NCBI GenBank assembly: GCA_965204755.1
Contig: OZ242011.1
Coordinates: 1,376,001 to 1,440,000 of the forward strand
Length of the DNA stretch: 64,000 nt
Reading direction: 5' to 3'
Source of the DNA: Candidatus Marinacidobacterium sp.
Lineage (GTDB): Bacteria; Acidobacteriota; Vicinamibacteria; Marinacidobacterales; Marinacidobacteraceae
The notes beneath the pieces were generated by a model. It ran no database searches, was not told the origin of the DNA, and worked only from the letters and a program-made list of their open reading frames with translations. The translations under genes were made by a program, and so were the position numbers. This document shows positions 7,752 through 49,857 of this stretch, piece after piece; the stretch's first letter is position 1; each line of letters opens with the position of its first letter.

Positions 7752-8015
7752 ATGCGACGGGAAGGAGCCGCCCGAGTTGGCCCCGGTGGCGGCCGGCGAA
7801 GCGCGGCCGACCCGGCGCCGGTCATCCGCGTGAACGGGCGGGAACGGCCGCTTCCGTCGCCGCCCTCCGTCGCCGGGGCGCTCGCCGCCCTCGGACTCCG
7901 CGGCCCGGTCGCGGTGGAAGTGAACGGCGCGCTGGTGCGCCGCGCCGAGCACGCCCGGACGGAGATCGCACCGGGCGACCGGCTCGAAGTAGTCACCTTC
8001 GTAGGCGGAGGCTGA
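7752..8015 (+). CDS. thiS: Sulfur carrier protein ThiS (start approximate)
   Basis: IRVNG..VAVEVNG..GDRLEVVTFVGGG C-terminus, directly upstream of thiG. Confidence 0.88.
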   Translation: MRREGAARVGPGGGRRSAADPAPVIRVNGRERPLPSPPSVAGALAALGLRGPVAVEVNGALVRRAEHARTEIAPGDRLEVVTFVGGG

Positions 8016-8021
8016 CCGCCG

Positions 8022-14105: not shown

Positions 14106-14350
14106 GCGGCGGGCCGCCGGAGTATGCGCGAACGCGCCGCTCCCGCCCGATGCTCCCCGTCGGGTTCCGGTCGGCGGAAATCGGGCGCCGCCGCCCGGTT
14201 CCGAGCGTCACCGGTCGGAGTCCTTCCGCGTCGGGTCAGCCACCCGGCGGCGCATAGAATCGGGGATTCGCCGCGCCGCGGCATCCCGCCCCCGGCGGGG
14301 CGCGGCCCCGGCAGAACCGAAGGGCGACGCGCCCCGAAGGAGCCAGCACC

Positions 14351-15958
14351 ATGCGAAACCACCCGACCACCCGCCGGAACCCCGCGCCGGCGACGCTCCG
14401 CCGACCCGCCGGGGCCGCCGCGGCGGCGCTCGCGCTCGCCCTCGCGCTCGCCCTCGCCGCCTTCGGCTGCGGCGGCGGCGCCGAAGAAGAGCCCATGGTG
14501 GAGATGACCCTCGAAGAGAGTTTGGTCGCCCGCGCCGCCGGGTTCGAACTCGACACCGAGCGCGTCCCGCCGCCGGGCGACTTCATCGAGCACGAAGCCG
14601 CCGGTTTCGCCAAAGTGCTCTGTTCCGCCGTGTTCCTGACCGGGCTCGACTTCGAGGACGCCCAGATGCAGATCGGCGGCTTCACCGCACGCTACCAGTA
14701 CCGCGACCGTCTCCCCGGACGCGAGATCGACATGGACGGACAGCGCGTCCACATCACCACCGACACCGGCGTAACCCGCACGGCCGTGCTCCACGGCGAC
14801 CAGGGCTGCGTGGCGCTCCCGAAGGGCGAAGACGCCCCCTTCTACGAGACCGTGCCGGTTGCCTCGACCGTGAACCAGAACGACCCGTGGCCGATGGGCG
14901 ACGCGCTGCCGGACGAAATGCCGCCGGACGATGTGGACGGCGCGAAACTCGAAGCCGCGGTGGACGCCGCCTTCGAAGAGGGCGCGATGACGCTCGCCTT
15001 CGTGGTGCTGCATCGGGGCCGGCTGGTCGCCGAGCGCTACCGCGAAGGCATAGACAAGGACACGCCGCTCGAGAGTTGGTCCATGAACAAGAGCCTCTCG
15101 GCGACGCTGATGGGCGTGCTCATCCAGCAAGGCGTCTATGACCTCGACGAAATCGCGCCGATCGACGCCTGGCGCGAGGACCCCACCGACATACGCAGCA
15201 CGATCCGCATCCGTGACATTCTGCAGATGTCCAGCGGCCTCCGCTGCGTGAACGCCGGCGACCCGGAATACGACGAGGCGGCGATGGGATACCCCGACCA
15301 CCTCTACCTCTACACCGGAACCGTGGATTCGCACCTCTGGGCGGCGGACCGTCCCGCGCAGTGGCCGCCGAACACGGTAGGCCGCTACCGCAACTGCGAT
15401 CCGGTGCTCACGAACCACATCGTGCGGCTCGGCGTCGAAGGCGAACTCGAGGAGAACTACCACCGGTTCCCGCAGAAGTACCTCTTCGACAAGATCGGCG
15501 CCGCGCGGTTCGTGGCGGAAGCCGACCCCTACGGCAACTTCCTGCTGAACGGTTACGGCTTCGGCGCCGGCCGCACCTGGGCGCGGCTCGGCCAGTTGTA
15601 CCTGGACGACGGCATTTCGCCGGAGGGCGAGCGCGTCCTGCCGGAAGGCTTCGCCGAGTTCGTGAGCACGGTGGCGTCGTCGTGGGAGGCGGACGGCCGT
15701 CCGATCTACGGCGGCCTCTTCTGGATCAACAACCCGCCGCGCGGCGGGACGAAGCGGTTCCCGGCGCTGCCGAACAGCGCTTACAGCATGGCCGGCGCCG
15801 GCGGGCAGAGCACGATCATCGTCCCCACGCACGAGATGGTCATCGCCCGGCTGGGCCTCTACCAGGGTTCGCTCGACGGCAGCGCGAACCGGGCGCTCCA
15901 GAACGCTCTCGGCCTGCTGATGGAGGCGATTCCCGCCGCTTCCACGGACGGCGACTGA
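14351..15958 (+). CDS. Lipoprotein serine hydrolase (class C beta-lactamase-like)
   Basis: Lipobox AFGC; SxxK as SWSMNK; YRN; WARLGQLYL; MAGAGGQ. Confidence 0.85.
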   Translation: MRNHPTTRRNPAPATLRRPAGAAAAALALALALALAAFGCGGGAEEEPMVEMTLEESLVARAAGFELDTERVPPPGDFIEHEAAGFAKVLCSAVFLTGLDFEDAQMQIGGFTARYQYRDRLPGREIDMDGQRVHITTDTGVTRTAVLHGDQGCVALPKGEDAPFYETVPVASTVNQNDPWPMGDALPDEMPPDDVDGAKLEAAVDAAFEEGAMTLAFVVLHRGRLVAERYREGIDKDTPLESWSMNKSLSATLMGVLIQQGVYDLDEIAPIDAWREDPTDIRSTIRIRDILQMSSGLRCVNAGDPEYDEAAMGYPDHLYLYTGTVDSHLWAADRPAQWPPNTVGRYRNCDPVLTNHIVRLGVEGELEENYHRFPQKYLFDKIGAARFVAEADPYGNFLLNGYGFGAGRTWARLGQLYLDDGISPEGERVLPEGFAEFVSTVASSWEADGRPIYGGLFWINNPPRGGTKRFPALPNSAYSMAGAGGQSTIIVPTHEMVIARLGLYQGSLDGSANRALQNALGLLMEAIPAASTDGD

Positions 15959-21834: not shown

Positions 21835-23097
21835 CTATGCCGATGCCTCGTCCGGCAAGGGCCGGAGAGCGGGCCTTCGCATCACACCCCTGCTGCCTAT
21901 CGCCAGATGCACCCAAGGGCCGGAATCACGCCTGAACTTGGGGGCCGGCAACCCAGCCTGGCGGCATCCATCGATCATTCGCAGCGTCCCGGTCCCTTTC
22001 GTCTCCATGTAGCGCGTCTGTCGCAACGCGCGCACGATCGCCCGGTTGCGGGGAACGGAGGGATGCGGCTCCGACAGGGCCGACACCGACAGCGAGGTCG
22101 GCAACTTCCCGGGGTTGATGATCTCCAGGCGGTCCGGGAAGAGCATCACCTGCACGCTCGCAGCACTGAAGTAGTCCCGATGAGCGACCGCATTGACGAT
22201 AGCCTCTGTCACCACCGCTTCCGGAAACTGCGGACCGCAGGGCACCCTCGGCCCGTCCGTCCGCAGACCCATCCGGGAAGACAAGCGACTCAAGACGAAT
22301 TCTGTCGCGCGTTCGATCGCCCCGAAGATCGGCCCCTCTACGAACGAAGTCGCCGCTATGGGCGATGCGGCGTGGAGACCGCGGAACTGGACGCATTTGA
22401 TGACGGCGGACGGGTGGAACTTGGTCGGGCAAGCGCCGAACAGGAGCACGGCCGCATTCGTCAAACGCTCGTCGTCGCCGAGGTCGAGATATCTCAGCAC
22501 TTCGGCGACTCCGGGATCGCGTCCGAGGCGCCGACGAACGGGTTCCCGGGCGCGCCTCAGAAAGGCGCCGACCGGTTCCTCTCCAAGGTCGGCCAAGGAG
22601 GCTCTCGGGCATCGGGCTTCGTCGAACCGCTCGGTGCGCAGTACTCCGTAGTCCAGAAGATAGGTGACAAGAGAATCCAGAACCGCAGCCCGGAGTGAAT
22701 CGGAGTCCGTGAAATCGGTTCGAACGGCCGACTGTTCCGCTTTACGGATCAGGGCCGTCATCCTCGGATCTCGTTGAGCGTCGTCGCCTCCCTTCACGAA
22801 GATGAGTCGCTTCTTCCGACCGACACTCGCTCGATCGAACTCCTCTTCCGTGGGTGAGATCGAGCCCGCGGCGTCGCCGTAGGCCGCTCCGAAAAGGCCG
22901 ACAAACACATCGCATTTGTCGAGGGCATCTCGGCGGGCGGGCGACGGCGCCGAATCCGCAACGAAGGGCCGCTCGACGAGGGATACAGTGAAGCACCGAC
23001 GCAGGACCGGGTTGCCGCGCACCTGCTCTTCGAGCATTCTTCGTTCGTCTCGGAACTCCGCCTCCAAGCCACTCACGAAGAGCCGGAATCGCTCCAT
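21835..23097 (-). CDS. DUF4062-like domain fused to HATPase_c_4 (RecG C-terminal-like) domain
   Basis: RLFVSG..FVGLFGAAYG..SPTEEEF; TEAIVNAVAHRDY, DRLEIINPGKLP, SVPRN, GTGT. Confidence 0.85.
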   Translation of the reverse strand: MERFRLFVSGLEAEFRDERRMLEEQVRGNPVLRRCFTVSLVERPFVADSAPSPARRDALDKCDVFVGLFGAAYGDAAGSISPTEEEFDRASVGRKKRLIFVKGGDDAQRDPRMTALIRKAEQSAVRTDFTDSDSLRAAVLDSLVTYLLDYGVLRTERFDEARCPRASLADLGEEPVGAFLRRAREPVRRRLGRDPGVAEVLRYLDLGDDERLTNAAVLLFGACPTKFHPSAVIKCVQFRGLHAASPIAATSFVEGPIFGAIERATEFVLSRLSSRMGLRTDGPRVPCGPQFPEAVVTEAIVNAVAHRDYFSAASVQVMLFPDRLEIINPGKLPTSLSVSALSEPHPSVPRNRAIVRALRQTRYMETKGTGTLRMIDGCRQAGLPAPKFRRDSGPWVHLAIGSRGVMRRPALRPLPDEASA

Positions 23098-23154: not shown

Positions 23155-25299
23155 TCAGCGGCCGAGGGACGGCCATAGGGAGACCAGGAATCGTTCCTGG
23201 CGGACGGGGATTCGGACGCGGCCGGTCATTCCGTCATAGACGGAGTGTTCGGGGCCGAACTCGTAGACGACGCTCGCCGGGAGGTCGGCGTAGACCAAGG
23301 CCACCGGGCGGCCGGTGAACTCCTCGGGGAGGGGGCGGCGGAGCAGGGCGCGGGCTTCTTCCCCCTCCACGACTTCGCCGCTGACCGAGCGGGCGGTCAG
23401 GTGCAGGGGGATGCCGGGAAACTGGTCCAACTCGGCTTCGACCTGGAGGCCGGAGTGGAGCAGGGGGCGGTAGTTACCGGGGACGGCGGCCACGATCTCG
23501 AACGCGGCGTCCTCGCTGTGGATGGCCGCCACGGTCTGCCCCGGCGCGACCACGGCGCCGGTCTGGACGAGGATGTCCGCGAGGACGCCGTCCACCGGGG
23601 CGGTGAAGGCGCGGGCTTCCAGGGCGGCGCGCGCTTCCCGGCTGGTCGCCCGCAGGGTCGCCAGACCCGATCCGGCGCCGGGTTCGTCGGGATAGCGGAG
23701 GTAGCGGACCAGGTTCTCCTCGTACTCCTGTTCCAGCCGCTGGACGAGAGCCAGTTCGTTCGCGTCGTAGAGCGTGCCGATGACCGCGCCGGCGCTGACC
23801 GGCGCGCCCGGGGTCAACCGCACCTCCTCCACCGTTCCGGCGGCGTTCGCGACGACGGGGGTTCGGCCGAGGCTGTGGACGAACGCCGCCCCCTCGGCGT
23901 ATTCCGTGCTCCGTCCGAGGATGAGGAAGGTGAAGAAGCCCACGAGGAGGGCGGCCAGCGCGACCACGATCCAGTTGCCCCAGCGTTCCGAGACATCGAG
24001 GATGGAGGAGGCGCCGCGGTCGGCCCGGCGGTGCTCCTCCAGGGCTTCCGGGCGGAAGATGGACGGGTCGGCGGGGCCGCCCCCGCCCTCCAACCGCTGC
24101 TCTTCCCGGAGCGCCGACAGCGGGGCGCTGAATTCCCGGGCGAGCAGGCGGCCGGCGGGAACCCAACCACGCGCGAGGCGGCTCTCTTCGTTCCGCGGTC
24201 GCAGCGTCAGGACACCCAGCACCGTGCCGGCCAAGTCACGGATCGGGAGCGCGACGAGCCCGCGGCCCGCCATGGGCGCCGCGTCCAGGGCCGGGTCGTA
24301 GAAGACGCTCTCTTCGGGCCGGGGCTCCTCCACCGAAACGCCGGCTCGCGCCGCGTAGGAGATCAACCCGACCGCCGCGCTGTCCACGCTCTCCGCCTCC
24401 GCCACCGGCTGGGGGCCGATCAGCGCGTCCGCCCAGTCGTCGCAGGCGTACACCGACGCCACCGCTTCGGGCATCCGCTGCTCGGCGCGCGCCGCCAGGT
24501 CGCCCAGCGTCTGTTGGACCGCGCGGCGCCGGCGCAGGCTGGCCGAGTCGTACCAGTCCCGCTCCGGGATCTCGTAGTCCTCGCCGTCGGTCTCGCCGAA
24601 GAGGGCGCGGTGGGCGCGGCGCAGGACGGCCTGCTCCGCCGCAGCCAGCGCGAGCCCGGCCAGGAGCCGAGGCTCGGGCCAGCCGCGGCAGACGAAGAAG
24701 GCGGCGCCGGTCGCCGCCAGTTCGCTCCGCCAACCGGACGGGGCGCCGCCCCGGGCGACCAGGATCGGGCGAAGACCGGGGAAGTTCTCGACCGCCGGCC
24801 GGACCGCGGCTTCGGCGGGATCGTGCGGCGGCCGGCAACCGAGCAGCAAGGCCCCGACGGCGTCGTCGTCCCGGACTTCGCCGACCGGAACGACCTCGAT
24901 CCCGGCGAGACCCGGGACCTCCCGAAGCCAAGGAACCGCCGCCTCGTCGTCCACCGCGACCACCGCCGGAGCGAGCCGGGAGAGGGCCGCCGCATCCCGA
25001 CCCCCGGCGTCTTCGGCGAGATGCAGGGTCGCCGACCGAACCGCCCGGGCGCCGCTGCCGAGCGCCGGCCCGAGCCGGAAGTCCGCCACGCGCGCCCACG
25101 CCCCGCCGCGCGCCGAGCGCAGCCGCAAGGAGAGTTCGACGCCCTCCGCCGCCCCGTCGCGCCCGGCGGCCGCATCCGCCTCCCGAAGACCCACCCGCGC
25201 CTGCCGCTCGCCCACCTCCAGCAACCAAGCGGAACACGACCACCCCCCGACGCGCATCTCCGCGGCCGCCGAAACGCGCCGAAGACCCCCGCCGCTCAC
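23155..25299 (-). CDS. HlyD-family secretion adaptor with N-terminal receiver-like and GAF-like domains
   Basis: GTGA overlap with lanT stop; GAF-like AVGLISYAARAG..YDPALD..LVALPIRDLAGTVLGVL; SIFRPEALE, one TM helix, APVDGVLADI, DGMTGRVRI. Confidence 0.8.
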   Translation of the reverse strand: MSGGGLRRVSAAAEMRVGGWSCSAWLLEVGERQARVGLREADAAAGRDGAAEGVELSLRLRSARGGAWARVADFRLGPALGSGARAVRSATLHLAEDAGGRDAAALSRLAPAVVAVDDEAAVPWLREVPGLAGIEVVPVGEVRDDDAVGALLLGCRPPHDPAEAAVRPAVENFPGLRPILVARGGAPSGWRSELAATGAAFFVCRGWPEPRLLAGLALAAAEQAVLRRAHRALFGETDGEDYEIPERDWYDSASLRRRRAVQQTLGDLAARAEQRMPEAVASVYACDDWADALIGPQPVAEAESVDSAAVGLISYAARAGVSVEEPRPEESVFYDPALDAAPMAGRGLVALPIRDLAGTVLGVLTLRPRNEESRLARGWVPAGRLLAREFSAPLSALREEQRLEGGGGPADPSIFRPEALEEHRRADRGASSILDVSERWGNWIVVALAALLVGFFTFLILGRSTEYAEGAAFVHSLGRTPVVANAAGTVEEVRLTPGAPVSAGAVIGTLYDANELALVQRLEQEYEENLVRYLRYPDEPGAGSGLATLRATSREARAALEARAFTAPVDGVLADILVQTGAVVAPGQTVAAIHSEDAAFEIVAAVPGNYRPLLHSGLQVEAELDQFPGIPLHLTARSVSGEVVEGEEARALLRRPLPEEFTGRPVALVYADLPASVVYEFGPEHSVYDGMTGRVRIPVRQERFLVSLWPSLGR

Positions 25300-27527
25300 G
25301 CCGCCGCCTCCTCGCCTTCGGCCGCGCCGTCCGCCCGGGCCCGCACCAACGCGGCGTACTCCCCGTCCCGCTCCATCAACTCCTCGTGCCGGCCCGACTC
25401 GGCGATCTCGCCATCGCGCAGCACCACGATCCGGTCGGCGTCGCGGATGGTGTTCAGACGCTGGGCGATCACGATGCGGGTGCACGAAAGCCGCGCCAGC
25501 CGGGACTGGATGGTCGCCTCCAACCGCGTATCCAGGTGGCTCGTCGCCTCGTCCAGGATCAACACCGGCGGCGCGGTCGCGATCGCCCGCGCCAACGCCA
25601 GCCGCTGCATCTGGCCGCCGGACATCAGGAAGCCGCCGTCGTAGAGCATCGTGTCGTAGCCGAGCGGCAACTTGGCGATGTCGTCGTGGATGCAGGCGAC
25701 CCGCGCCGCCTCGATGACTTCCGCGAGCGACATCTCCGGGTTCCCGAGCGCGATGTTCTCGCGCACGCTGTCCGCGGCGTACCAATGCGTCTGCGTCACC
25801 GTCCCGATGAGCCGGCGGACTTCGCGCACATCCAGACTGCGGAGGTCGGTCCCGGAGTAGAGCACATGCCCCTTCGTCGGCTCGTAGAGGCCGAGCAGCA
25901 ACTTCGCGATGGTGGACTTGCCGGCGCCCGACCGCCCGACGAACGCCACGAACTCGCCCGAGCGGATCTTCACGGAGAGGTCCTTCAACACCTCCGGCCC
26001 GCTGTCGCCGTACCGGAACGAAACCTGTTCCAGCGCGATCTCGCTCAGGTCGGCGGCGACCGGACGCTCGATGCGGCGTTCCGGCTCCGCGGTGATGACA
26101 TCCTCGATCCGGTCCACATAACTGCCGACGAGGTAGATCGAAGAGATCGTCCCCACCAATGACGAAAGCGGCCCCAGGAAGCCCGTGGCGAAGGCATTCA
26201 TCGCCAGCATGACGCCGAGCGTCAGGTGCCCGTCGAGCACGCGCTGCGCCCCCACCACCAGGATCAGCACCATACCCAGACTGGAGAGCGCGCCGGTCGC
26301 GGCCCCCACGGAGGCGTTCATCCGGTTCTGCTCGATCCCGATGTTCAGTTCGCGCACGAACAGGTCCGTCCACTTGCGCGCCACCTGCCGCTCGGCGCCC
26401 ATGGACTTCAGCGCCTCCATGCCGGAGAGCATCCGCACCTGGTAACTGCGGGCGTCCGCCTGGCGCTGGATGGACTCGGACACCAGTTCGCGGCGGCGCA
26501 CCCGGGTCACGAGGAACACGGTGACGCGCAGGATGCCGAGCACGATCACCACGCTGCTGATGACCAGGTCGGTCAGCAGCATGAGCACCAGGTAGGAGAG
26601 GACGAACAGGCCGTCGAGCGCCGCCGAGAACGCTGTCGAAGTCAGCGCGTTGCGGATCTGGACATGGCTGTTCATCCGCAGCATGAGGTCGCCCGACGAC
26701 CGGTTCTGCAGGAACGAGAACGGCAAGTCCATCAGGTGATCCACGAAGGACACCGTGAGCCGGGCGTCTATCCGCGACATCACTTCCACCATCAACCGGG
26801 AACGGATGAAGGTGAACACCGTGGAGAACAGCGCAATGCCGACCAGGGCGACCGCCACGGTGAGCAGCAGGCTGTAGTCCCGGCGCGGGACGATGCGGTC
26901 CACCAGCAGGGCGGTGAAGAGCGGCGTCGCCGCGCCGAGCACCTGGATCGTCGCCGACATCGCCAGGAGTTGCGGCAGGTGCCCCGAGCGCAGGATGACC
27001 CGCGCGTAGTCGCGGAGCACGCCGCTGCGCTCCGCCTTCTTCGACGAGAAAGTGTCGGTCGGCCACAACTCCACCGCCACTCCGGTGAAACTGCGGCTCA
27101 CCTCTTCCCAGGGGACGAGCCGCCGCCCCATCGCCGGGTCCATGACCCGCAGGCCGCGGCGGGTCGGCCGGTCGAGCACGACGAAGTGGCTGAACCGCCA
27201 ATGCAGGATCGAGCCCTGCTGCAGCCGACCCAGGTCCTCGATCCGGTCCACGCGCACTCCGCGCCCGCCGAGTCCGTGCTCCTCGGCCATATGGAGCAGG
27301 TCGGCGGCGGTGGTGCCGTCGCGGCCGGGGTCGAGCCGGTCCCGCAGCACCCGGACCGGCGTATGGCGGCCGTGGAGCGCCAGCGCGCCGGCCAGGCAGG
27401 CGAGCCCGCACTCGGTCGCCGCCGTCTGCTGGACGAAGGGAACGGTTCGCGGGCGGCGGATCTGGCCCAGGCCCCGGAGGTTCCGGACCGAAGCGGCGAA
27501 GAAGGAGAACCGCGTCGGCTCAGGCAC
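25296..27527 (-). CDS. lanT: Peptidase-containing ABC exporter (C39 peptidase, TMD, NBD)
   Basis: VPFVQQTAATECGLACL, HWRFSHFVVLD; TM helices; GRSGAGKST, SGGQMQRL, ILDEATSHLD. Confidence 0.93.
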   Translation of the reverse strand: MPEPTRFSFFAASVRNLRGLGQIRRPRTVPFVQQTAATECGLACLAGALALHGRHTPVRVLRDRLDPGRDGTTAADLLHMAEEHGLGGRGVRVDRIEDLGRLQQGSILHWRFSHFVVLDRPTRRGLRVMDPAMGRRLVPWEEVSRSFTGVAVELWPTDTFSSKKAERSGVLRDYARVILRSGHLPQLLAMSATIQVLGAATPLFTALLVDRIVPRRDYSLLLTVAVALVGIALFSTVFTFIRSRLMVEVMSRIDARLTVSFVDHLMDLPFSFLQNRSSGDLMLRMNSHVQIRNALTSTAFSAALDGLFVLSYLVLMLLTDLVISSVVIVLGILRVTVFLVTRVRRRELVSESIQRQADARSYQVRMLSGMEALKSMGAERQVARKWTDLFVRELNIGIEQNRMNASVGAATGALSSLGMVLILVVGAQRVLDGHLTLGVMLAMNAFATGFLGPLSSLVGTISSIYLVGSYVDRIEDVITAEPERRIERPVAADLSEIALEQVSFRYGDSGPEVLKDLSVKIRSGEFVAFVGRSGAGKSTIAKLLLGLYEPTKGHVLYSGTDLRSLDVREVRRLIGTVTQTHWYAADSVRENIALGNPEMSLAEVIEAARVACIHDDIAKLPLGYDTMLYDGGFLMSGGQMQRLALARAIATAPPVLILDEATSHLDTRLEATIQSRLARLSCTRIVIAQRLNTIRDADRIVVLRDGEIAESGRHEELMERDGEYAALVRARADGAAEGEEAAA

Positions 27528-27554
27528 GGGTCGGGCGCCGGGGGGAAGCGGGGG

Positions 27555-28598
27555 TCACGACGAGTCGTCGGTGGCCGGGAACACTTCGGGATGCGCGGCG
27601 CGGCAACCGGCGAACCGCTCGTCGGCGATGGTCCGGCGCGGCGGAACCGAGATCCGGGCGGGAAGGCCGGACGGCAGCCGCTCGCCGCAGAGCGCCGCCT
27701 CGACGAAGACGAGCAGCGTGCGGGCATCGATCACCGGCGAAACCGCCAGGACGACGCCGGGCTGCACCGCGTGCCCTTCGGTCCGCACCCACAGCGGATC
27801 GCCGGGGAGGAGGAACTCGGCCGCGTCGGTGGGCGCGGCGAAGCGGATGCGCCACTCGCCGGCGCCGACCGCGAAGACGGTCGCTCCGCGGGTGTAGTAG
27901 GCGCCGGGCGGGCCGTGGACTTCGGAAACGACCCCGGTGAGCGGCGAACGGAGGGTGGCGCGGGCCAACTCCGCCTCCGCGTCGGAGAGCGCGGACTGCG
28001 CCTGGGAAAGACGCGCTTCGGCGGCGTGCAGCCGCGCTTCGGCGATCTCCACTTCGGCCCGGATGTCTTCCATCTGTTCCTGCGAGAAGAGATCCGGGCG
28101 CTCCAGGCGCCGCTCGTAGCGCCCGGTCGCCTGCTCCGCTTCCACCTGCGCCGCGTGGAGGGCGGCGTCGGCCTCCGAAACGGCGGCGCGGGCGGAAGAA
28201 ACCTGCCGCTCCGACGCGTCCGTGTCGAAACGCCCCAGGACCGCGCCGGCGGTCACGGATTGCCCGGGCATCGCCAGACTCTCCTCCAGGCGGCCGTCGA
28301 ACGGCGCCGGGATGCGAATCTCCCGTTCGCGCACGACGACCCCGGTATAGACCTCGCCCCCGGCGGCGAACCGCTCGACAGCGTCGTCCGATTCCGCCGG
28401 CCCGGCCCCGGAGCGTTCCGCCGGAGACGCCGCCATGCCGGACGACGCCGTTCCACCGGGCGCCGCCGGTTCGCCGCCGCAGGCCGCGAAGACGAGCGGG
28501 GCGAGGATCGAAACGCAGAAGGAGCGAAACAGGCGACGCGACGCGGGCGCAGGGGCCGCCGCGCGAACGCTCCGCCGACGACGGCGCGCCCCGTCCAT
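27555..28598 (-). CDS. Lipoprotein periplasmic adaptor (RND/MFP family)
   Basis: Lipobox FAAC; IPAPFDGRL..PGQSV; coiled coil; LRSPLTGVV; VSPVID. Confidence 0.85.
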   Translation of the reverse strand: MDGARRRRRSVRAAAPAPASRRLFRSFCVSILAPLVFAACGGEPAAPGGTASSGMAASPAERSGAGPAESDDAVERFAAGGEVYTGVVVREREIRIPAPFDGRLEESLAMPGQSVTAGAVLGRFDTDASERQVSSARAAVSEADAALHAAQVEAEQATGRYERRLERPDLFSQEQMEDIRAEVEIAEARLHAAEARLSQAQSALSDAEAELARATLRSPLTGVVSEVHGPPGAYYTRGATVFAVGAGEWRIRFAAPTDAAEFLLPGDPLWVRTEGHAVQPGVVLAVSPVIDARTLLVFVEAALCGERLPSGLPARISVPPRRTIADERFAGCRAAHPEVFPATDDSS

Positions 28599-28606
28599 GT
28601 CCCGGG

Positions 28607-31600
28607 TCAGGCGGCCGCGCCGACGCGGCCGCGCGCCAACAACGAGCGGTAAGCGCGGCTCAGGAAGTCGTGGAGTACCAGTTCGTGCTGGCGCGCCGAG
28701 GTTCGCAGGAGGCGGTTCGCATGCATGTGCGTGAAGTCCCGAAGGATCGCGAACAGCGGACGCCCGAGTTCCCCCGCCTCGGCCCGCTCCCGGAGCCGAC
28801 GCGCGAGCGGCTCGGTTCCGGACGACCGCCGGCGAAACGCGGCGTCCACCGCGGACAACGGCCCGTCGGCCGACGAATCCTCCCCCGACAGCAGCCGCAG
28901 CACCCCCGGCAACTCCCGGCGCAGCCGCCCCGCCAACCGCCGACGCAGCGGCGCCCCCACCGAGAACTCCCGCCCGAAGTTCTCCCGCGCCTCCTCGATC
29001 ACCTCCCGCCGCTCCTCCACCGAAAGCCCGAAGTCGCCGAGCAGCCGGTCGAACCCCAAGAGCGCCGCGCGCCAGCGAAGCCCCTCGTCGCCGGTCTCCT
29101 CCACCGCCCGGAGCACGGCGAGCGCCGCTTCGCTGTCCAGCCGGAACCAGTCCTCGGCCAACTCGATGCCGCGGCCGCCGCCGTAGCGCTCGATCTCCCG
29201 CACATAGGTGTCCACCGACATCCGGTGCGCCAGCCCGTCGCGGAAGAACGGCTGCGTCAACTCCGCCGCCCGGTCGTCCAGCCGGCGCTGCGTCTCCCGA
29301 CTCGCCCGGAACCGCGCCCGCAGGTGGTTCTCCGGGTCGGAGTAGCGGAGGAAGAACCACGGCGCGTCCGGCTCCCGCTCCCGGTGGAGGGCAGCCAGCG
29401 GCGCCACCACCTCCCGCAGCAGCGGGTCCGCGCTCACCGGAGCGGCGTAGATCTTCAGGAACAGCCACTCGTCCCCCGGCGGGAACACCCGGCGGACGGC
29501 GGCCTCCCCCGGCGCGGAAGCCGCCGCCCGCGCGGGCCCCTCCCGTTCGGCGGCGTCCGGTTCGCGGGCTTCCTTCCGCACCAGCGGCAGGACGATCTCG
29601 TGCCGGTGGCGCCCCTCCGGGCTCTCGACGCACCCGCCGAGATCCTCCGCCGGCACTTCCTCCAGCACCAACGACGGCCGCTGCCGCGCATAGTCCGCCA
29701 GCACCCGCCGGCAGAGTTCGTTCTCCAAGTCGAGCAGCAGCCGGTTGTCGCCTTCCGAAAGCCGCACCCACCGGGGCAGGCCCAACTCCCGGACGAGGGC
29801 GGCCGCCGCCCGCTCCCGCTCGCCGGGGGTCTTCCCCTCCGCCACCCGCTCGTAGGCCTTCCGCCCGCGCCCGACCCGCCAGCGGGCCAGCGCGTACACG
29901 GCGCGCCCCCGCACGACCCGCGGCAGGTAGGGCAGCGAATCCAACGATCCCCAGCCCCAGCCGAAACCCTCGCGCCGACCCTCGCCCTGCAGGGCGCAGA
30001 GAAAGCGGTAGAGCCCCGGACTGCGCCGGAAGTTGTGCGCCGAAGTGAGCCGCGGGCGCACCTCCCGCCCGTCCTTGCGGGACCGCAGCCGGAACCGCCC
30101 CCGCTCCAGTCGCAGCAGCAAGTCGGCGGCGGTCAACCGGGAGTCGCCCTCGAGCCGCGAGTTCCCGGCGCAACTGATCTCCACCTCCCGCAGCCGCGGC
30201 CGCCGCACCACATTCCCCACCCGGCCCTCCGGGGTGTGGACCACCTCCGCCAGCACCGCCTCCGGCGCCAACGCCTCTTCTTCCCGGAGGTGTTTCCGCA
30301 CCCATTCGCCGAGTTCCGGGTCGAGGTCGCAGAACCGCCCCAGCAGCCGCGCGCCGGACGGCCCGTGCGCCCCCCGCACGAACAGCCGGTAGTCGCCCCG
30401 CTGCACCGCCGCCTCCGACTCGGCCCAGATCTCGAACTGCAGGCTCAGCGCATCCGGCAACTCGGCGCTCTCCGCCGGCGCGAGCCGGGCCAGCAACTCG
30501 TCGTCGAGTTCCACGGTGGGGGGCAGCGCGCCGCCCGCCTCGAGCGCCCCCGCCTGCAGCCGCTCCCACATCCCGTCGGCGAAGGCGGAACGCGGCGCGC
30601 CGCCCGCGCCGCCGCCCGCCCGCCCCGGGCCGATGTCGAGACCGGCCAGGAGCGGGGACGCGGGGAGACGGGGCCGCAAGTCCGCGCCGGGCAGTCCGAT
30701 CCCCCGCTCCGGATCGAGCGCCTCCGTCAGCGGGACTTCGCGGGACTCGTAGCGCTCCCGGAAACGCGACTTCAACTCACGCAAACCGTCCCCCGCCGCC
30801 CCCGCCAGCCGCCGGAGCGGTTCGGCGGCGCCGAGCGCCTCGTCGACGACGGACTCGTCGAGCCGCAGACCGGGCGCCTCCCGGAAGAGGTCCACCTGCA
30901 ACAGCCGATCGGAGGCCTTCATGCCCAAACCGTCCGTCCAGACCGCACCGACCGCGTCCCAAGCGTCCCGGGAAGCGCCGACGCCGCCGGCGTCCAACCG
31001 GCGGATGGCTTCGCGGAGAGGCCGGACCCGCTCCGCCCCGGCCGCAGGCAAGCGCTCGAGCAACTGGTCGAGCGGGTCGTCCCCCACGACGGCCGGCATC
31101 CAGTCCGGCGTGAGGACCTGCGCCTCGATCAAGTCGTCCACGAAGGCCGCCACTTCGTCTGTCGAAGCGTCCGAGGCCAACTCCGCCACGGCCTCCGCCA
31201 ACTCCGCCGGGGAAGCGCCTCCTTCGGCCCGACGGAGCGCCGCGTCCAGGACCGGGGTCACCTCGACGAACTGCGCTTCGTGGCGGATCTCGCCGCCGCT
31301 CTGGCGGAACTCCACATACTGGCAGCCCCCCGAGACCGGCGCCAAGGTGTCGTTCGGCCGGTAGCGGGCCGAGCGGCGGACCTCCGGGTCGCCGCGCAAC
31401 CCGTCGGCGAGCGACGCCAGTTCTCCCAAGTCCAGCGTGGATCGGCGGCGGCAGCCGGCCAGATCGGCGAGCCGGAGCCGGGTCTCCCCGCCCACTTCGC
31501 CGACGGAAACCCCGGCGAACAGCCCGAACGGCGTGCACCGGTCGCTCATCCGGGCGAAGTACTGGATCAGGGAGCGGTCGAGCCGCGCCCGCTTCCGCGC

Positions 31601-31894
31601 CGACCGCTTCCCGGTATCCGCGTTCATCGCGTCCTCCAAGCCGGGACTGGCGACCCGCAGGGCATCGCGCACGGCCGGGGACGAGAGGACGCGCTCCAAC
31701 TCGCGACGAAGCGATGCTTCCCCAGGCGTCCCGGCCGCGGTTCCCTCGCCGGCGTGCGCCGCCGCCCGGTCCCGCCAGCCGCCGAAGGCCGACGCCGGGA
31801 GCAGCGGCGACCGAAGGACGAAGAAGCCGGAAGGCCGGAACTGCCCGGTCAGCGGGCCGGGCGTCGGCGGTGCGCCGGTTGCCTTCTCTCCCAT
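28607..31894 (-). CDS. lanB: Class I lanthipeptide dehydratase (glutamylation and elimination domains)
   Basis: FFVLRSPLLP, YFARMSDRCTPFGLFAG, LLGRFC, GDNRLLLDL, EWLFLKIY, WFFLRYSDP..HLRARF, YVREIERYGG, HMHANRL. Confidence 0.96.
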   Translation of the reverse strand: MGEKATGAPPTPGPLTGQFRPSGFFVLRSPLLPASAFGGWRDRAAAHAGEGTAAGTPGEASLRRELERVLSSPAVRDALRVASPGLEDAMNADTGKRSARKRARLDRSLIQYFARMSDRCTPFGLFAGVSVGEVGGETRLRLADLAGCRRRSTLDLGELASLADGLRGDPEVRRSARYRPNDTLAPVSGGCQYVEFRQSGGEIRHEAQFVEVTPVLDAALRRAEGGASPAELAEAVAELASDASTDEVAAFVDDLIEAQVLTPDWMPAVVGDDPLDQLLERLPAAGAERVRPLREAIRRLDAGGVGASRDAWDAVGAVWTDGLGMKASDRLLQVDLFREAPGLRLDESVVDEALGAAEPLRRLAGAAGDGLRELKSRFRERYESREVPLTEALDPERGIGLPGADLRPRLPASPLLAGLDIGPGRAGGGAGGAPRSAFADGMWERLQAGALEAGGALPPTVELDDELLARLAPAESAELPDALSLQFEIWAESEAAVQRGDYRLFVRGAHGPSGARLLGRFCDLDPELGEWVRKHLREEEALAPEAVLAEVVHTPEGRVGNVVRRPRLREVEISCAGNSRLEGDSRLTAADLLLRLERGRFRLRSRKDGREVRPRLTSAHNFRRSPGLYRFLCALQGEGRREGFGWGWGSLDSLPYLPRVVRGRAVYALARWRVGRGRKAYERVAEGKTPGERERAAAALVRELGLPRWVRLSEGDNRLLLDLENELCRRVLADYARQRPSLVLEEVPAEDLGGCVESPEGRHRHEIVLPLVRKEAREPDAAEREGPARAAASAPGEAAVRRVFPPGDEWLFLKIYAAPVSADPLLREVVAPLAALHREREPDAPWFFLRYSDPENHLRARFRASRETQRRLDDRAAELTQPFFRDGLAHRMSVDTYVREIERYGGGRGIELAEDWFRLDSEAALAVLRAVEETGDEGLRWRAALLGFDRLLGDFGLSVEERREVIEEARENFGREFSVGAPLRRRLAGRLRRELPGVLRLLSGEDSSADGPLSAVDAAFRRRSSGTEPLARRLRERAEAGELGRPLFAILRDFTHMHANRLLRTSARQHELVLHDFLSRAYRSLLARGRVGAAA

Positions 31895-31956
31895 GGGCGG
31901 GGCGGGAGGTTACCGGGTGCCCGCCGCCCGCGATGCGAGGACTCTCCCGGCCCGGG

Positions 31957-33174
31957 TCAGGACAGCAGGAGCAGCCGATCCCAGGCGGGGTCGGTGTCGG
32001 TGACGGCGGCGAGAAGAGCCAGACCGATGCCCGCGGACCCGCCCAGGAACGAAGCATCGTCCACGAAGCCCTGCTTGCCGTCCACCTCCGCCCAGGCCTG
32101 GAAGCCGCCGACACCGACGCCGGGCTTGCGGTAGGTCGAGGCGTCGCCGAACCACGCGAGCGCCGCCTGCCGGAATCGCTCGTCTCCGGTGCGGCGGTAG
32201 AGCCGGTGGAAGATGTGGGCGTTCCCGGCCGCCCCGTGGCAGAGCGCAGCGTCCCGGTTACCGCTCTCGGAGGGCTCGACGCCGGCGCAGGCGAAGGACA
32301 TCGTCCGCCCCCATTCTTCGCCGGCGGAATCACCGCCCTCCCGGGCCGCTTCCCACACGACGGCCGCCGCGCCGAGCGGGCCGTAGCACCAAGCCATGCG
32401 GCGGTTCGGCTCGCGCCGGACACCGGGAGCGATCCACGACGGCAGATCGGGCGTTCCCGGGTCCGGGTGAGCGGCCAGCAGCCACCGCAGGCTTCCTTCG
32501 AGCAGCGTCCTCGCCCGGTCCGCCTCGACGCCGCGCGCGCACAACTTGCCGAGCAACCACATCACCCCCGGCACACCGTGCGCCACGCCCAAGTTGTAGT
32601 AGCCCTGCGGCGCGCGCTTCCGCTGCCACGCCGGGAGCAGGTCGGACTCCGTGAACCAACTGATGCCCTCGTCGACTTCTACCGCCGTCTTCTCCAACTC
32701 GTCGAGAATACGGACGAGCCCATCGCAGGCGGCCTCGTCGGGCAGCCGCTCTACGAAGTGGACGCCCACTCCGACAAGCCCGCTGATCAGGTCGTACCCG
32801 AACGACCGCGGCCACGAGTCCAGCGCAGCCCCCGTGTTTCGGCTCACTTCCCGCTCCACGAAGTCGTCCTCCGCACCGAGATGTCCGACGAGCCAGCCGA
32901 GCCCCGCCCAACCTCCGAACAACCCCGGGCGGAGGCGCGTTCCCGAGCCATCGATGTACGAGTCCACCAGGCGTCCGCACCGCTCCATGCCGTCGTCGGC
33001 GTGACCCGTCAACTCCAGATAGGCGGGCAGGAGCGTCGCGAGCACATCGGAGCGCGGCAGACCGCTCACGGAAACCTCGTCGGTACCGGCGCGCGTCAGG
33101 TAAGACAGGTCCCGGTCAACGGCCTTCACGGCCGTCGTCGCAGTCCGATTCCCCTCCGGAAGAAGCGGCTTCAC
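31957..33174 (-). CDS. lanC: Lanthionine cyclase
   Basis: YDLISGLVG, NLGVAHGVPG, zinc ligands AWCYG and LCHG, FLGGSAGIGLAL..WDRLLLLS. Confidence 0.95.
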   Translation of the reverse strand: MKPLLPEGNRTATTAVKAVDRDLSYLTRAGTDEVSVSGLPRSDVLATLLPAYLELTGHADDGMERCGRLVDSYIDGSGTRLRPGLFGGWAGLGWLVGHLGAEDDFVEREVSRNTGAALDSWPRSFGYDLISGLVGVGVHFVERLPDEAACDGLVRILDELEKTAVEVDEGISWFTESDLLPAWQRKRAPQGYYNLGVAHGVPGVMWLLGKLCARGVEADRARTLLEGSLRWLLAAHPDPGTPDLPSWIAPGVRREPNRRMAWCYGPLGAAAVVWEAAREGGDSAGEEWGRTMSFACAGVEPSESGNRDAALCHGAAGNAHIFHRLYRRTGDERFRQAALAWFGDASTYRKPGVGVGGFQAWAEVDGKQGFVDDASFLGGSAGIGLALLAAVTDTDPAWDRLLLLS

Positions 33175-33542
33175 GGTTGAACCGTCCTCCGGCGGCCAGT
33201 CCGGTACCGAGCCTCCTCGACTGCAGATTTCGCAATATCGTGAGAGACCATCCTTGGCCTCATCCCAAGGCCACGACCGAGGTTGCCGACACTCGCGACC
33301 CGCCGAATGTTCGACTCCGCGTGATCGTGAGGACCCGGCAACTGGAACGGATCGAAATCACTGGCGCATGGGGCGACGCAACTTCCGACAGGCAGCGCCG
33401 AGAATGGGCAAGGCAACGCCCGGCGCCAAACAGCGTTCCGGAGAAGCGCAGGTCAGGCACCCCGGCTTCGATCCCCATTCCACGGAACGGGCGACGCTGC
33501 CGGGGGCCTTGGCCGTCGCAGAGGACGGGCCCGAGTGCCGCG

Positions 33543-33851
33543 CTAGGCGCAGCGCTCCGGACTGGTCGAGTCCACACCGCACCCGCCCATGTCGCAGGTG
33601 TCCCCGCAGGTGTCCCCGGCGGTGGCGCCGCAGGCAGCACCGTCGCAGGTGGGCGCGCACGAGGGACCGTCGCCGGTCGCCGCCGGGCAAACGCCCTCGC
33701 ACCCCGAGTCGTGCGGATGGGCCCCGGCCGCGTCCTCCATCTGCCTCCGGGTGAGGTCGGCGATCGGCCGCCGCCGAAGTTCAAGCCGCGACTTCCCCTT
33801 GCGGTGGTCGTCGGGGGGCGTCGGAACGGTTTCCGGTTTGGTGATCGTCAT
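33543..33851 (-). CDS. lanA: Lanthipeptide precursor (44-aa leader plus 58-aa Cys/Ser/Thr-rich core)
   Basis: GAGGAG RBS before ATG; leader LELRRRPIADL..MEDAAGA; core with 9 Cys and 10 Ser/Thr; first gene of the lanC-lanB-lanT unit. Confidence 0.88.
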   Translation of the reverse strand: MTITKPETVPTPPDDHRKGKSRLELRRRPIADLTRRQMEDAAGAHPHDSGCEGVCPAATGDGPSCAPTCDGAACGATAGDTCGDTCDMGGCGVDSTSPERCA

Positions 33852-33988
33852 GAGTGTGCTCCTCGGATCGGGTCAGGTCAGTGCCCGCGGCCACCTCTGC
33901 AGCCGGGGGCGAGAAAAGGGCGTTTGCAGGAGGCAACGGCCGGACCATCGGCCACATCGAGCAGGCAGGTCCTGAGCCTTCGCGTAAA

Positions 33989-34002
33989 AGTCAATTTGTC
34001 AA
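33989..34002 (-). promoter_or_regulatory. Possible -35 or regulator boxes upstream of lanA
   Basis: Minus strand TTGACA-AA-TTGACT in an AT-rich patch about 140 bp upstream of lanA; no convincing -10. Confidence 0.3.
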
Positions 34003-34105
34003 CGGTTTGGAAGAAGAATCCTACACGCCCCCCTTTTCGACAGAGAGCCCTTCGGTTCAGATTCTTGAAGCGAGCGACAGAGTATCCTGACTTTCCGATT
34101 CCGCG

Positions 34106-34160
34106 GGTCAACCGGCGCCGAAAATGTCCCACTTTTAAGCAACGAAAACGCCCCACCTCG
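34106..34160. mobile_element. Relic IS21-like terminal repeat
   Basis: GGTCAACCGGCGCCGAAAATGTCCCACTTTTAAGCAACGAAAACGCCCCAC: GTCAA start plus two GAAAA..CCCAC boxes, same layout as an IS21 end but different sequence from the intact element. Confidence 0.55.
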
Positions 34161-34522
34161 GGGAGTGGAGGAGGTCGGTTGGCCGGGCAAGGTTTGCGGA
34201 CGGACTTTCGGCCGAGGCCGACGGCCGCGGGCGTGGTCGGCTCTTGGGGCGGGCGTGTCAATGGGACGCGAAAAGTGGACAGAAATGGGATCCGAAAAGT
34301 GGACACTTTTCGGGCTCGGGTTGCGGGGTGGAGGGAAGGGTCGAGGCGGGGTTTGGGGCCCGACGACGGTGGTGGCGTCCCGCGACCCCGGCACTCCTCC
34401 GGGAGGGTAGGGCCGAGGCGGGGCCGGGCGCGCCTTGGCGGAGCGTCCGGGCCGGTGGGCGCGACGGCCGGGGCCGGAGGGAGCGGAGCGACCGGAGCGC
34501 CCCGGCCGTCGCGCGTCGCGCT

Positions 34523-35347
34523 TCATCGGGGGCCCGCCTCCCCGATCCCCGGCGGGTCGCCGGGGTTCTTCCGGGCCGGGGCCTGGTGCAGCGCCTGCGC
34601 CAGGTCGGCCCGGAGCCGCATCCGGTAGCTGTTGCCCCGGATGTTCACGATGTGGCAGTGGTGGAGAAGCCGGTCGAGCAGGGCCGCCGCCATCACTTCG
34701 TCGCCCAGGATCGCCCCCCACTCCTCGAACGTCTTGTTCGAGGTCAGAACCGTCGAGGCCCGCTCGTAGCGCTCGTTGATCAACTGGAAGAACAGGGTCG
34801 CCCCGTCCCGGGTCACCGGCAGGTAGCCGATCTCGTCCACCACCAGCAACGCCGGGTGCGTCAGGACCCGCAGCCGACGCCGCAACTGGCCCTTCGCCTC
34901 CGCCTCCCGCAGCGTCTCGATCAGGTCCCCCAGCGAGCCGTAGTACACCCGCCGCCCCTGCTCCGCCGCCGCGATCGCCAAGCTGATCGCCAGGTGGGTC
35001 TTGCCCACCCCGGGCGGCCCCAGGAACACCACGTTCTCCTTCCGCCGGACGAAGTCCAACTCGTGCAGCGAGGCGATCTGCTCCCGACGGATCGAGGGCT
35101 GGAAGGTGAAGTCGAAGTCGTCCAGCGTCTTCACCGCCGGAAGCCGGCTGGAGCGCATCGCCGCCGCCAGCCGCCGGTTGTTCCGGAGCGTGATCTGCGC
35201 CCCCAGCAGCCGCTCCACCGCCTCCGCCCCGGTGATCCCGCCGCTGTCCACCCCCGACAGAACCTCGTCCAGCGCCTCCAGCGCCCCCGGCATCTTCAGG
35301 TCCACCAGCTGGGCGCCGATCCGCTCCCGCCGGGTCCCCTTCGTCAT
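34523..35347 (-). CDS. istB: IS21 helper ATPase
   Basis: KTLDDFDF, GPPGVGKTHL, LLVVDEIGYLP, LDRLLHH, GNSYR. Confidence 0.95.
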   Translation of the reverse strand: MTKGTRRERIGAQLVDLKMPGALEALDEVLSGVDSGGITGAEAVERLLGAQITLRNNRRLAAAMRSSRLPAVKTLDDFDFTFQPSIRREQIASLHELDFVRRKENVVFLGPPGVGKTHLAISLAIAAAEQGRRVYYGSLGDLIETLREAEAKGQLRRRLRVLTHPALLVVDEIGYLPVTRDGATLFFQLINERYERASTVLTSNKTFEEWGAILGDEVMAAALLDRLLHHCHIVNIRGNSYRMRLRADLAQALHQAPARKNPGDPPGIGEAGPR

Positions 35348-36362
35348 GACACCCGCTCCGACAGCGCGTAGGCCCGCAGCGACCGCCGCTCCACCCGCAC
35401 CGAACGGGCCGCCGGCGCCGCGGCCGACCCCGGCAACGCCGGAACGATCCCGGCATACGGGCGCCCCGCCAGCGCCCCCAGCACCGCCCGCTCCTCCTCG
35501 AAGCGCTCCGCCGGAACCTCCTTCAGCGTCGCGTGAACCCGCGCGTTCGCTGTCCTTGAAAGCCACCGGAGCGCCCGGTCGTTCAGGTCCCCGTCCGACG
35601 CGAACTCCCGCCCGTAGAAGAACCCCTTCCGGATATACCCCACCGGACGCTCCACCTTCCCCTTCGTCTGCGCCCGATACGGGCGGCAGGCCCGGATCCG
35701 GAACCCCCAGTGGCTCGCGAACCGCAAGAACTCCGCGTTCCGCAGCAACTCGCCCCCCGACGCCCGCCGATCCTCGATGACCACCGACTTCATCTGGTCG
35801 AACAGCAACTCCCGGGGCACCCCCCCGAAGTACTCGAACGCCGCCTCCAGGCCCCGCATCAGCACCTCCATCGTCTCCTGCCGGTAGAACTGGAACCACA
35901 GCAGGCGCGAGTAGCCCAGCACCACCAGCAGCGCGTGCCGCCTCCCCCAAGGCAGCCGGAACTTCGCGAAGTCCACCTGCCCCTGCAGCCCCGGCGGCGT
36001 CTCGAACCGAACCACCGGCTCCACCCGAGGCCGAGGCCGAACCTCCCGGACATGCCGCTTCACCAGGTCATACCCCCCCGCATACCCGGCATCCCGGATC
36101 TCCGAGAACAGCCGAACCGCCGACAACTCCGGATACGCCGAAAGCCGGCTCCCGATCCACTCCCGGAACGGGTCCAGAACCGAACCCGGACCCCGCCGCG
36201 GCCCATACCGAACCCGACCCTCCCGCCCACCGTCCCCGCCGCCCAACCGCTTCCAGTTGTACGCCGTCTGGCGACTGATCCCCAGCTCCCGGCTGATCGC
36301 CGCCACGCTAGCCCCCGACCGAGCAAGGCCCAGAACCGCCTCCGAAACGTCCTCTCGTACAT
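35344..36362 (-). CDS. istA: IS21 transposase (probable frameshift near the 5' end)
   Basis: HTH ISRELGISRQT, RFETPPGLQGQVDF, DQMK, RAQTKGKVER; RBS-preceded ATG at 36362 is out of frame by one base. Confidence 0.88.
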
Positions 36363-36887
36363 CGCGCCTCTCCCGCGCAAAGAGCAGCGCCCAACCCCCA
36401 GACCGACTCCCCGGGCCCGGTCCCCCCTCCCGGAAACCGACCCTCTCGCCGCCCGTCTCCGCGGAGACCGGACGACAATCCTCCCCCGGACGGACTGTCC
36501 ACTTTTCGCGTCCCACAACTGTCCATTATTGGGAGCCCGCCGACAAGCGGAGGGGGAAGATGGCTCCCGCGCGGCACCCGAGGGGCGGTGCTCCGATTCA
36601 CTGCCTGCTCACAGCACGCCGCGACGGTCGCGCCCCGGCCGGCGCGGCGGCCGGAGCCGCAGGCCGACCCGCATCATCCGGACGGTGACCGGGAACCGTC
36701 CCGCTCAGCCTACCGCCGCTGGATCTTCTCGTCCCACGACCACTCTTCTGTCACCGTCGGGAATTCGGCCGGGGCCCACCCGGCTCGAAGTCTCGACGCA
36801 CTCGGCTTGCGCGAACCCCGTCGCGCCGGAAGGCGCCGGCGCTTCGAGTGAGAGGCCGGAAGCGGAGGCGCCGTGTTGCGGATAACG

Positions 36888-49832: not shown

Positions 49833-49857
49833 CACGCCGGTCGGAGACTGCATGTCG

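Follow-up and report, generated by a model that had tools for sequence, protein, structure and literature searches.

Gene content of the lanthipeptide locus

The DNA analyzed here is a 64,000-nucleotide (nt) stretch of contig OZ242011.1 (the whole stretch is called "the window" below), and our subject is a lanthipeptide gene cluster within it. Because the window is about 72% G+C, genes were called from third-position G+C, translation, and family scans. Positions 23155-33851 hold six open, full-length, co-oriented genes, all on the minus strand and with close or overlapping spacing. In order, they encode a precursor peptide (LanA1), a cyclase (LanC), a dehydratase (LanB), a lipoprotein-type periplasmic adaptor (MFP1), an ATP-binding cassette (ABC) exporter with a C39 protease domain (C39-ABC), and a membrane-anchored adaptor (HlyD2). 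The initial annotation had named these six genes, and Pfam matches, motif alignments, and matches to structures in the Protein Data Bank (PDB) bore out each gene, its extent, and its strand. We put the probability at roughly 0.7 that a class I lanthipeptide pathway which looks to be in working order is encoded here, in a sponge-associated marine bacterium of the Acidobacteriota. The nearest public relative of the LanB protein, at 75% identity, comes from a metagenome-assembled genome titled Candidatus Marinacidobacterium sp. (Acidobacteriota, Vicinamibacteria). Near-identical DNA occurs in 13 runs of 4 studies, which are labeled as sponge or marine metagenome or as coded organisms.

The assignment to class I comes from a full-length LanB, a stand-alone zinc-type LanC, and an adjoining leader-bearing precursor that contains Ser/Thr and Cys. 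The lanB gene (28607..31894; 1095 amino acids [aa]) has both dehydratase domains, covered end to end: the N-terminal glutamylation domain matches positions 2-649 of the 649 in PF04738 (E 1.5e-143), and the C-terminal elimination domain matches positions 1-255 of the 255 in PF14028 (E 4e-58). Its PDB matches are 9g04 (E 6e-46) and the full-length dehydratases MibB (5ehk, E 2e-45) and NisB (E 1.4e-20). In the lanC product (31957..33174; 405 aa; PF05147, E 2e-27), the motifs GVAHG, WCYG, and CHG align with the zinc ligands and acid/base residues of 8byk and LANCL2. LanB would dehydrate Ser and Thr residues in the precursor core by glutamyl-tRNA-dependent glutamylation and elimination, and the zinc site of LanC would then add core Cys residues to the dehydro residues. 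The families, the catalytic motifs, and the leader all fit the earlier proposal of a class I LanB/LanC pathway with a C39-ABC exporter and two adaptors.

The cluster is flanked by a DUF4062/HATPase_c_4 gene and by an IS21-family element, with housekeeping genes farther out (RuvB, YebC, ThiG, SelA, and PurH). Between these two flanks we found no gene for a LanP protease, an immunity protein, a regulator, or TolC, as the initial annotation had also reported. The locus resembles the nisin-type systems (NisABTCIP) in its full-length glutamyl-tRNA-type LanB, its zinc LanC, and its leader-bearing precursor. Unlike them, it lacks an FxLD box, a subtilisin-like LanP, a plain LanT, and LanI/LanFEG, and its product has two membranes to cross.

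LanA1 and related precursors

The lanA1 gene (33543..33851) was read from its translation; it encodes 102 aa and has GAGGAG 8 nt 5' of its ATG. The leader contains L23-E-L25-R-R27-RPIAD-L33 and ends at G43-A44. A leader with an LxLxKx5L box and a double-Gly site has been described for class I precursors of the Bacteroidetes and tied to a C39 protease (Walker et al. 2020, PMC7268733). LanA1 carries both the box and a Gly-Gly-type site, with Arg in place of Lys and GA in place of GG. Thus, the biosynthetic kind is already known, and, as far as sequence can tell, the enzymes and the leader together are of the GG-leader class I kind. The characterized examples named in PMC9680876 are Ped15.1/15.2, the thalassomonasins, and the viridisins, and the characterized members in that source and in PMC7268733 come from the Bacteroidota and Gammaproteobacteria.

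The likeness to the Bacteroidetes GG-leader clusters is extensive. It includes separate LanB and LanC proteins, the LxLx(K/R)x5L box, a double-Gly-type site, a Gram-negative host, a C39-ABC protein in place of LanP, and several precursors per enzyme pair. The differences are that the present host belongs to the Acidobacteriota, that the cores consist of (S/T)C tetrad repeats with an N-terminal His or HPH, that the cluster encodes two adaptors, of which one bears a PilZ-like/pseudo-receiver/GAF module, and that a gene for an outer-membrane protein of the Oar type is conserved in the family's clusters.

Past the GA, the core of LanA1 is 58 aa long, begins with HPH, and contains 9 Cys, 10 Ser/Thr, 9 Asp/Glu, and 1 Arg. 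Recognition of LanA1 would be via the LxLx(K/R)x5L leader, and probably likewise for two further precursors of the same genome, LanA2 and LanA3 (described below). The predicted product is strongly acidic, about 58 residues long, and densely cross-linked, with as many as nine thioether rings.

We built a profile from five precursors and searched 1.84 billion proteins with it. There were 48 representatives at E ≤ 1e-3 and 15 at E ≤ 1e-10; at E ≤ 1e-5, the matches formed 94 clusters (90% identity), none of them named by any source. Core statistics started from LanA1 and the 48 representatives, 49 sequences in all, of which 44 fit the leader pattern; P0028, P0036, P0047, P0050, and P0055 were left out. 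The median core of these 44 has 51.5 residues, with 10 Cys, 10 Ser/Thr, 6.5 acidic residues, and 2 basic residues. The first residue past G(G/A) is His in 27 precursors, and 11 cores begin with HPH. The spacing from one Cys to the next is exactly 4 in 198 of 394 cases, and 65% of the Cys residues are preceded by Ser or Thr. These two counts define the family as a "(S/T)C-x-x" ladder. The family includes peptides in which Cys outnumber Ser/Thr, such as that of L001, a related locus in the same genus (13 versus 11).

Existing models describe the family unevenly. Against NF038153 (lant_leader_L1a), the model of class I lanthipeptide leaders, whose curated cutoff is 22 bits, the L001 orthologue scored 25.1, P0016 24.3, P0033 41.9, P0040 41.1, P0049 48.8, and P0052 47.2; P0008 (21.4) and P0012 (17.8) fell below the cutoff. 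Pfam gave no match to the precursors even at E 10. The best score in the ESM Atlas was 0.83, which we treat as a lead only; 63% of the members of that cluster have PF28317 (Lant_leader_dom). Our literature searches, with supplements and MIBiG outside their scope, found no paper describing the (S/T)C ladder type of core.

As far as these searches reach, the precursors are an undescribed family with (S/T)C tetrad repeats and often a His start. Nor did we find a description of the sensor-bearing adaptor, of a pair of adaptors combined with a conserved Oar-type gene, or of the Gln in the H-loop of the exporter that is discussed below. Family, profile, and literature searches gave no named or characterized match to the system, which agrees with its having been called likely uncharacterized at the outset. 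The (S/T)C units, about ten of them recurring every four residues, predict for the family unusually dense, ladder-like rings, with a topology beyond guessing from known lanthipeptides. [quoted passage not shown]

Weak leader-like matches at loci L006-L010 were considered as further precursors and rejected. They belong to a repeat some 220 nt long that is dispersed over many places in the genome, with frames of 73-74 codons open on either strand.

Export and the outer-membrane step

The exporter gene (25296..27527; 743 aa) has matches to PF03412, ABC_membrane, and ABC_tran. The C39 domain that goes with clusters of the GG-leader class I kind is present (PF03412, E 6.5e-25), and its catalytic Gln/Cys/His/Asp set (QQ..ECGLA, HFVVL, and MDP) is conserved in all four orthologues. 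This domain would cut LanA1 past Gly43-Ala44. The protein aligns with PCAT1 (4ry2) at E 5e-97 across residues 31-726, and the Walker A, signature, and Walker B motifs are present. Its best NCBIfam model is NHLM_micro_ABC1, at 543 bits versus a cutoff of 853, and it falls below every curated cutoff. With PCAT1, ComA, the NHLP set (TIGR03794/03796/03797), and CvaAB-TolC it shares the architecture of C39, membrane, and nucleotide-binding domains. It differs from them in its H-loop Gln, in having no second ABC subunit, in its additional lipoprotein adaptor, and in the absence of a TolC gene nearby. The pump is presumably a homodimer.

The first adaptor, MFP1 (27555..28598; about 347 aa; HlyD_3, E 6.5e-8), has a signal peptide and a lipobox cysteine, both read from the translation. 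It scored 84.5 bits against TIGR01730 (RND_mfp; cutoff 94.9), and its orthologues in four loci are 48-51% identical. TriABC of Pseudomonas is an earlier example of a single pump served by two unlike adaptors. Passage of the peptide across the inner membrane would be through the ABC transporter, with the anchored HlyD2 and the lipoprotein MFP1 as its partners.

HlyD2 (23155..25299; 714 aa; HlyD_3, E 3.7e-14) starts at a GTG that overlaps the stop codon of the exporter gene as GTGA, and its length agrees with that of 18 close homologues (666-724 aa). The initial annotation had labeled it a GAF/HlyD protein. Both parts of that label stand, and the domain order can be refined, from AlphaFold2 (AF2), Foldseek, and VIA-align, to a PilZ-like domain (residues ~1-100), a pseudo-receiver (~109-237), a GAF domain (~257-408), a membrane helix (~439-461), and an HlyD-type periplasmic part (465-701). 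At L001, about 600 nt of Arg/Gly-rich, apparently noncoding sequence (14851-15477) separates the exporter gene from the start of HlyD2, where the genes in the window overlap.

The 435 cytoplasmic residues of HlyD2 were modeled with AF2 from 20 aligned sequences (pLDDT 74.6). Foldseek matched the periplasmic part to MexA, MacA, AcrA, and EmrA at about E 1e-11. Residues 1-96 form a barrel with the PilZ fold, which VIA-align placed at Z 9.8 to 8u0i (rmsd 3.5, 81 residues aligned), 9.5 to 1yln, and 9.1 to the PilZ part of BcsA (9fmv); by the tool's own note, Z values near 9-10 are moderate. Residues 109-237 have a receiver fold (Z 10.2 to 6swl and 9.8 to DctD). Strand 3 of this fold (149-153) ends in LLLGC, and conserved Gly154 and Cys155 stand in place of the phospho-acceptor Asp, which is why we call the domain a pseudo-receiver. 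The GAF domain went unseen by Pfam in the window protein, and its fold confirmed it (Z 13.1 to 1mc0, with rmsd 4.1 and 146 residues aligned; Z 12.8 to 4mcw; Foldseek E 1.1e-7). Pfam GAF models matched one of the 20 family members, and in BLASTP residues 303-365 of the window HlyD2 aligned inside the GAF match of that member.

The modeled cytoplasmic module probably couples export to an intracellular signal. Its closest architectural precedent is Alg44 of Pseudomonas aeruginosa (PMC3815931), which has a PilZ domain, a membrane helix, and a MexA-like domain, binds cyclic di-GMP (c-di-GMP), and is needed for alginate secretion. Like Alg44, HlyD2 combines a cytoplasmic PilZ-type domain, a single membrane helix, and a membrane-fusion-protein domain. 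The differences are that Alg44 serves polysaccharide secretion and has canonical c-di-GMP motifs, whereas HlyD2 belongs to a peptide exporter, has an added pseudo-receiver and GAF domain, and has noncanonical PilZ motifs. A sensor module on the adaptor of an exporter would offer a testable case for posttranslational control of peptide secretion.

We looked for related loci in two ways. In a survey of 401 sampled genomes of the phylum, which scored 12 first-look candidates per genome, the precursor profile matched 3 genomes, own genome counted; one of the two foreign matches is an unpublished genome, G152, in which the gene order differs from that in the window. Of 18 other genomes belonging to this taxonomic family, 4 encode LanB, and none of 12 genomes from two sister families does. 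At L001, L022, L023, and L024, where the identity of LanB to the window protein is 55-75%, the order is a gene for a TonB-dependent-type outer-membrane protein, lanA, lanC, lanB, MFP1, and the ABC gene; precursors homologous to LanA1 thus adjoin lanC in all four. HlyD2 is next in L001, L022, and L023, and the L024 contig stops inside the ABC gene.

The outer-membrane protein of L001 has a CarboxypepD_reg domain (PF13620, E 7e-15) and a barrel (PF25183, E 3e-30; PF00593, E 1e-4). Its Plug segment, searched alone, is a weak match at 22.4 bits versus a cutoff of 23.9. This predicted architecture is that of the Oar subclass. Like Oar of Myxococcus xanthus (PMC6434023), it would have a CarboxypepD_reg extension, a plug, and a 22-strand-type barrel, and Oar is needed to secrete its cargo across the outer membrane. 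That cargo is a folded protease, as the source describes it, and not a peptide exported by an ABC transporter; the putative link to lanthipeptides here comes from the gene neighborhood. An intact copy, 79% identical to the L001 protein, is encoded elsewhere in the genome that contains the window.

The initial annotation proposed a type I secretion-style route. The C39-ABC protein and the adaptors fit that proposal, and its outer-membrane part can now be refined to a candidate Oar-type protein encoded at a second locus. The outer-membrane step would be made either by this protein or by one of three TolC-like proteins (OEP, PF02321) encoded elsewhere in the genome and outside the cluster. ABC transporters with HlyD-type adaptors normally dock to TolC, as in CvaAB-TolC and HlyBD-TolC, and a classical type I route through one of these TolC-like channels, with the TonB-dependent protein having no part in export (it could be a receptor, for example, or an importer tied to immunity), is quite possible. 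Its support consists of that norm, of the three OEP loci, of the periplasmic part of HlyD2, all of whose matches (MacA, MexA, AcrA, and EmrA) dock to TolC-type channels, and of the fact that the window cluster is intact without a TonB-dependent gene. On the other hand, none of the five loci that we compared contains or adjoins an OEP gene, and at L001 the TonB-dependent gene is co-oriented with the cluster and lies between two lanA genes, the second of them 5' of it. A bolder proposal is that these genes form a new export route for diderm bacteria, in which a C39-ABC transporter and two adaptors pass a ladder-like lanthipeptide to an Oar-type barrel instead of TolC, gated through the HlyD2 module by a second messenger such as c-di-GMP; we regard this proposal as doubtful. 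A cluster-linked Oar-type protein could reveal how the outer membrane is passed, a poorly understood step for RiPPs of Gram-negative bacteria.

Duplication, decay, and residence in the genome

Besides lanA1, the genome has two further precursor genes, lanA2 at a distance of 184 kb and lanA3 at about 970 kb, making three in all. Of these, lanA2 is 88% identical to lanA1, has a TTG start, and has kept all 9 Cys residues; the dN/dS for the pair is 0.48, from 8.5 synonymous and 12.5 nonsynonymous differences. LanA3 (G000:C1:437698-437958) is of a tighter TC-x-x type with a GG site, and its gene lies beside a 125-nt remnant of the istB gene of an IS21 element.

The lanA2 gene is part of a second, decayed copy of the cluster (G000:C1:1590578-1594750), which consists of the gene for the outer-membrane protein, an intact frame of 999 codons at 1590578-1593577; lanA2; and a fragment of lanB, with lanC missing. 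In blastn alignments, window positions 33206-33920 match the lanA2 locus at 94%. The second locus then jumps to the lanB fragment (window 30472-30847, 87%), which is frameshifted and internally deleted. On the other side, window positions 33927-34114 match, at 86%, the stretch directly 5' of the gene for the outer-membrane protein at the second locus. What is left of that gene in the window, as read from the blastn alignment to the second locus and the junction sequences, is a relic (33781..33957, minus strand) in which its start and about nine codons run straight into the sequence found after the stop codon at the second locus, with the junction at about 33920/33927. We thus conclude that a clean deletion of about 3 kb occurred in the window. 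Short-read contigs bridge the junction in two runs: X1, with 0 differences, which may be the source sample, and X5, from another study, with 2 differences.

By these comparisons, the cluster was duplicated in its own genome and each copy decayed differently. The window genes and the intact outer-membrane protein gene at the second locus jointly make up the full set. Genome mining that works cluster by cluster should take heed of such a case, in which two half-decayed loci share out a single pathway.

The IS21-family element beside the cluster (34254..36546, minus strand) consists of istA and istB (rve plus a helix-turn-helix domain; IstB_IS21, E 2.5e-83) and is outside the pathway. Contigs of runs X3 and X5 join positions ~34226-34253 to ~36547-36566 without the element, at a likeness threshold of 88 that would admit repeats or other organisms and with shorter sides of 32, 49, and 87 letters. 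The element, some 2.3 kb long, thus looks to be a simple insertion that is polymorphic. We also considered whether IS21 activity had separated lanA3 from the cluster, given the istB remnant beside it; this idea is unsupported, and the empty-site joints point to simple insertion.

Palindrome avoidance bears on how long the cluster has been resident. The genome, a single contig of 3.98 Mb, contains only 265 ACGT and 332 AGCT sites (observed/expected, 0.03-0.04). CTAG (385 sites) and TTAA (65 sites) are also almost absent, and GATC, GCGC, and CCGG are normal. This scarcity suggests long-standing restriction pressure. The initial annotation had noted the depletion and taken it as a sign of long residence, and the counts agree on both points: the cluster has no ACGT and no AGCT site versus about 22 expected of each, and its avoidance matches that of the host genome. 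Nearly all the sites in the window are in the adjoining IS21, which holds all three ACGT sites (34729, 35031, and 36347) and four of the five AGCT sites (11725, 34627, 34981, 35307, and 36284). Hence, the cluster is adapted to the genome in the same degree as its housekeeping neighbors, and the insertion sequence is recent. The L001 locus, from the same genus, is also depleted in ACGT and AGCT; the loci of other genera are not.

Several findings weigh against a working pathway of the kind proposed. LanA1 has no match to NF038153 at E ≤ 0.1, which also sets it apart from the Bacteroidetes clusters, and its leader ends in GA, not GG. It is a looser member of the ladder family, with 4 of 9 Cys residues preceded by Ser or Thr versus 65% in the family. 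PilZ domains bind c-di-GMP through the motifs RxxxR and (D/N)xSxxG. In the PilZ-like domain of HlyD2, a conserved RR is followed by an Arg eight residues on, not by RxxxR, and the second motif reads DGAAEG in the window protein and is an exact DxSxxG in 2 of 20 aligned members. The nucleotide-binding domain of the exporter is noncanonical at the H-loop, where Gln replaces His (AQRLNT versus AHRLST in ABCB4); in HlyB, this His is required for ATP hydrolysis. The outer-membrane protein gene is deleted in the window, although it is kept in the clusters of relatives. IS21 lies about 300 bp upstream of the promoter region of lanA1. No immunity gene or dedicated regulator gene is in view at the cluster. 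Finally, none of the runs listed with near-identical DNA is an RNA run.

Some of these points would also be expected if both copies were silent or decaying remnants, eroding since the duplication, with the peptide no longer made or exported. The loss of the outer-membrane protein gene from the window and of lanC and most of lanB from the second locus fits such decay, as do the IS21 element adjoining the promoter region, the TTG start of lanA2, the change from His to Gln in the H-loop, and the poverty of the LanA1 and LanA2 cores in (S/T)C pairs. We consider it unlikely. All six genes in the window are open and full-length with their catalytic motifs intact, and the outer-membrane protein gene, lost there, is intact at the second locus, so that the two loci are jointly complete. 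Of the five loci examined, four have the H-loop Gln, namely the window cluster and its counterparts at L001, L022, and L023, and the fifth, in the unpublished and more distant G152, has His; the Gln is therefore a trait of the lineage and not local damage. The dN/dS of the lanA1/lanA2 pair and the retention of every Cys likewise argue against loss of function, and the deletion junction is found in run X5 of another study as well.

Very unlikely, in our judgment, is a metallophore-like role, in which the peptide would be exported by the ABC transporter and retaken, metal loaded, via the TonB-dependent protein, and would be neither an antibiotic nor a signal: such a role would suit the TonB-dependent gene directly beside lanA in all four related loci, the His and HPH starts of the cores, their richness in Cys and Asp/Glu, and the members with more Cys than Ser/Thr, but LanB and LanC would use up most of the thiols at a median of 10 Cys to 10 Ser/Thr, the cluster contains no metal-related gene, at least 13 tblastn matches to CarboxypepD_reg-type TonB-dependent proteins in the genome make linkage to one such gene a weak argument, and an Oar-type protein has a documented role in export (PMC6434023).

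A few minor observations concern the gene layout and the rest of the window. The idea of an attenuator or terminator in the gap between lanA1 and lanC was rejected: the RNA fold z-score was -1.0, and across positions 33100-34300 a scan yielded a single terminator-like site, versus 1.3 expected, and nothing promoter-like. The flanking DUF4062 gene (21835-23097) and a Schlafen/AlbA_2 gene (48582-49958) are HATPase_c_4 paralogues, 2 of more than 20 in the genome, where this is an expanded family. Farther out, the window encodes SelA (6107-8443) and a pyridine nucleotide-disulfide oxidoreductase fused to AIR-synthase-like (SelD-type) domains (11787-14207); the two together hint at selenium metabolism.

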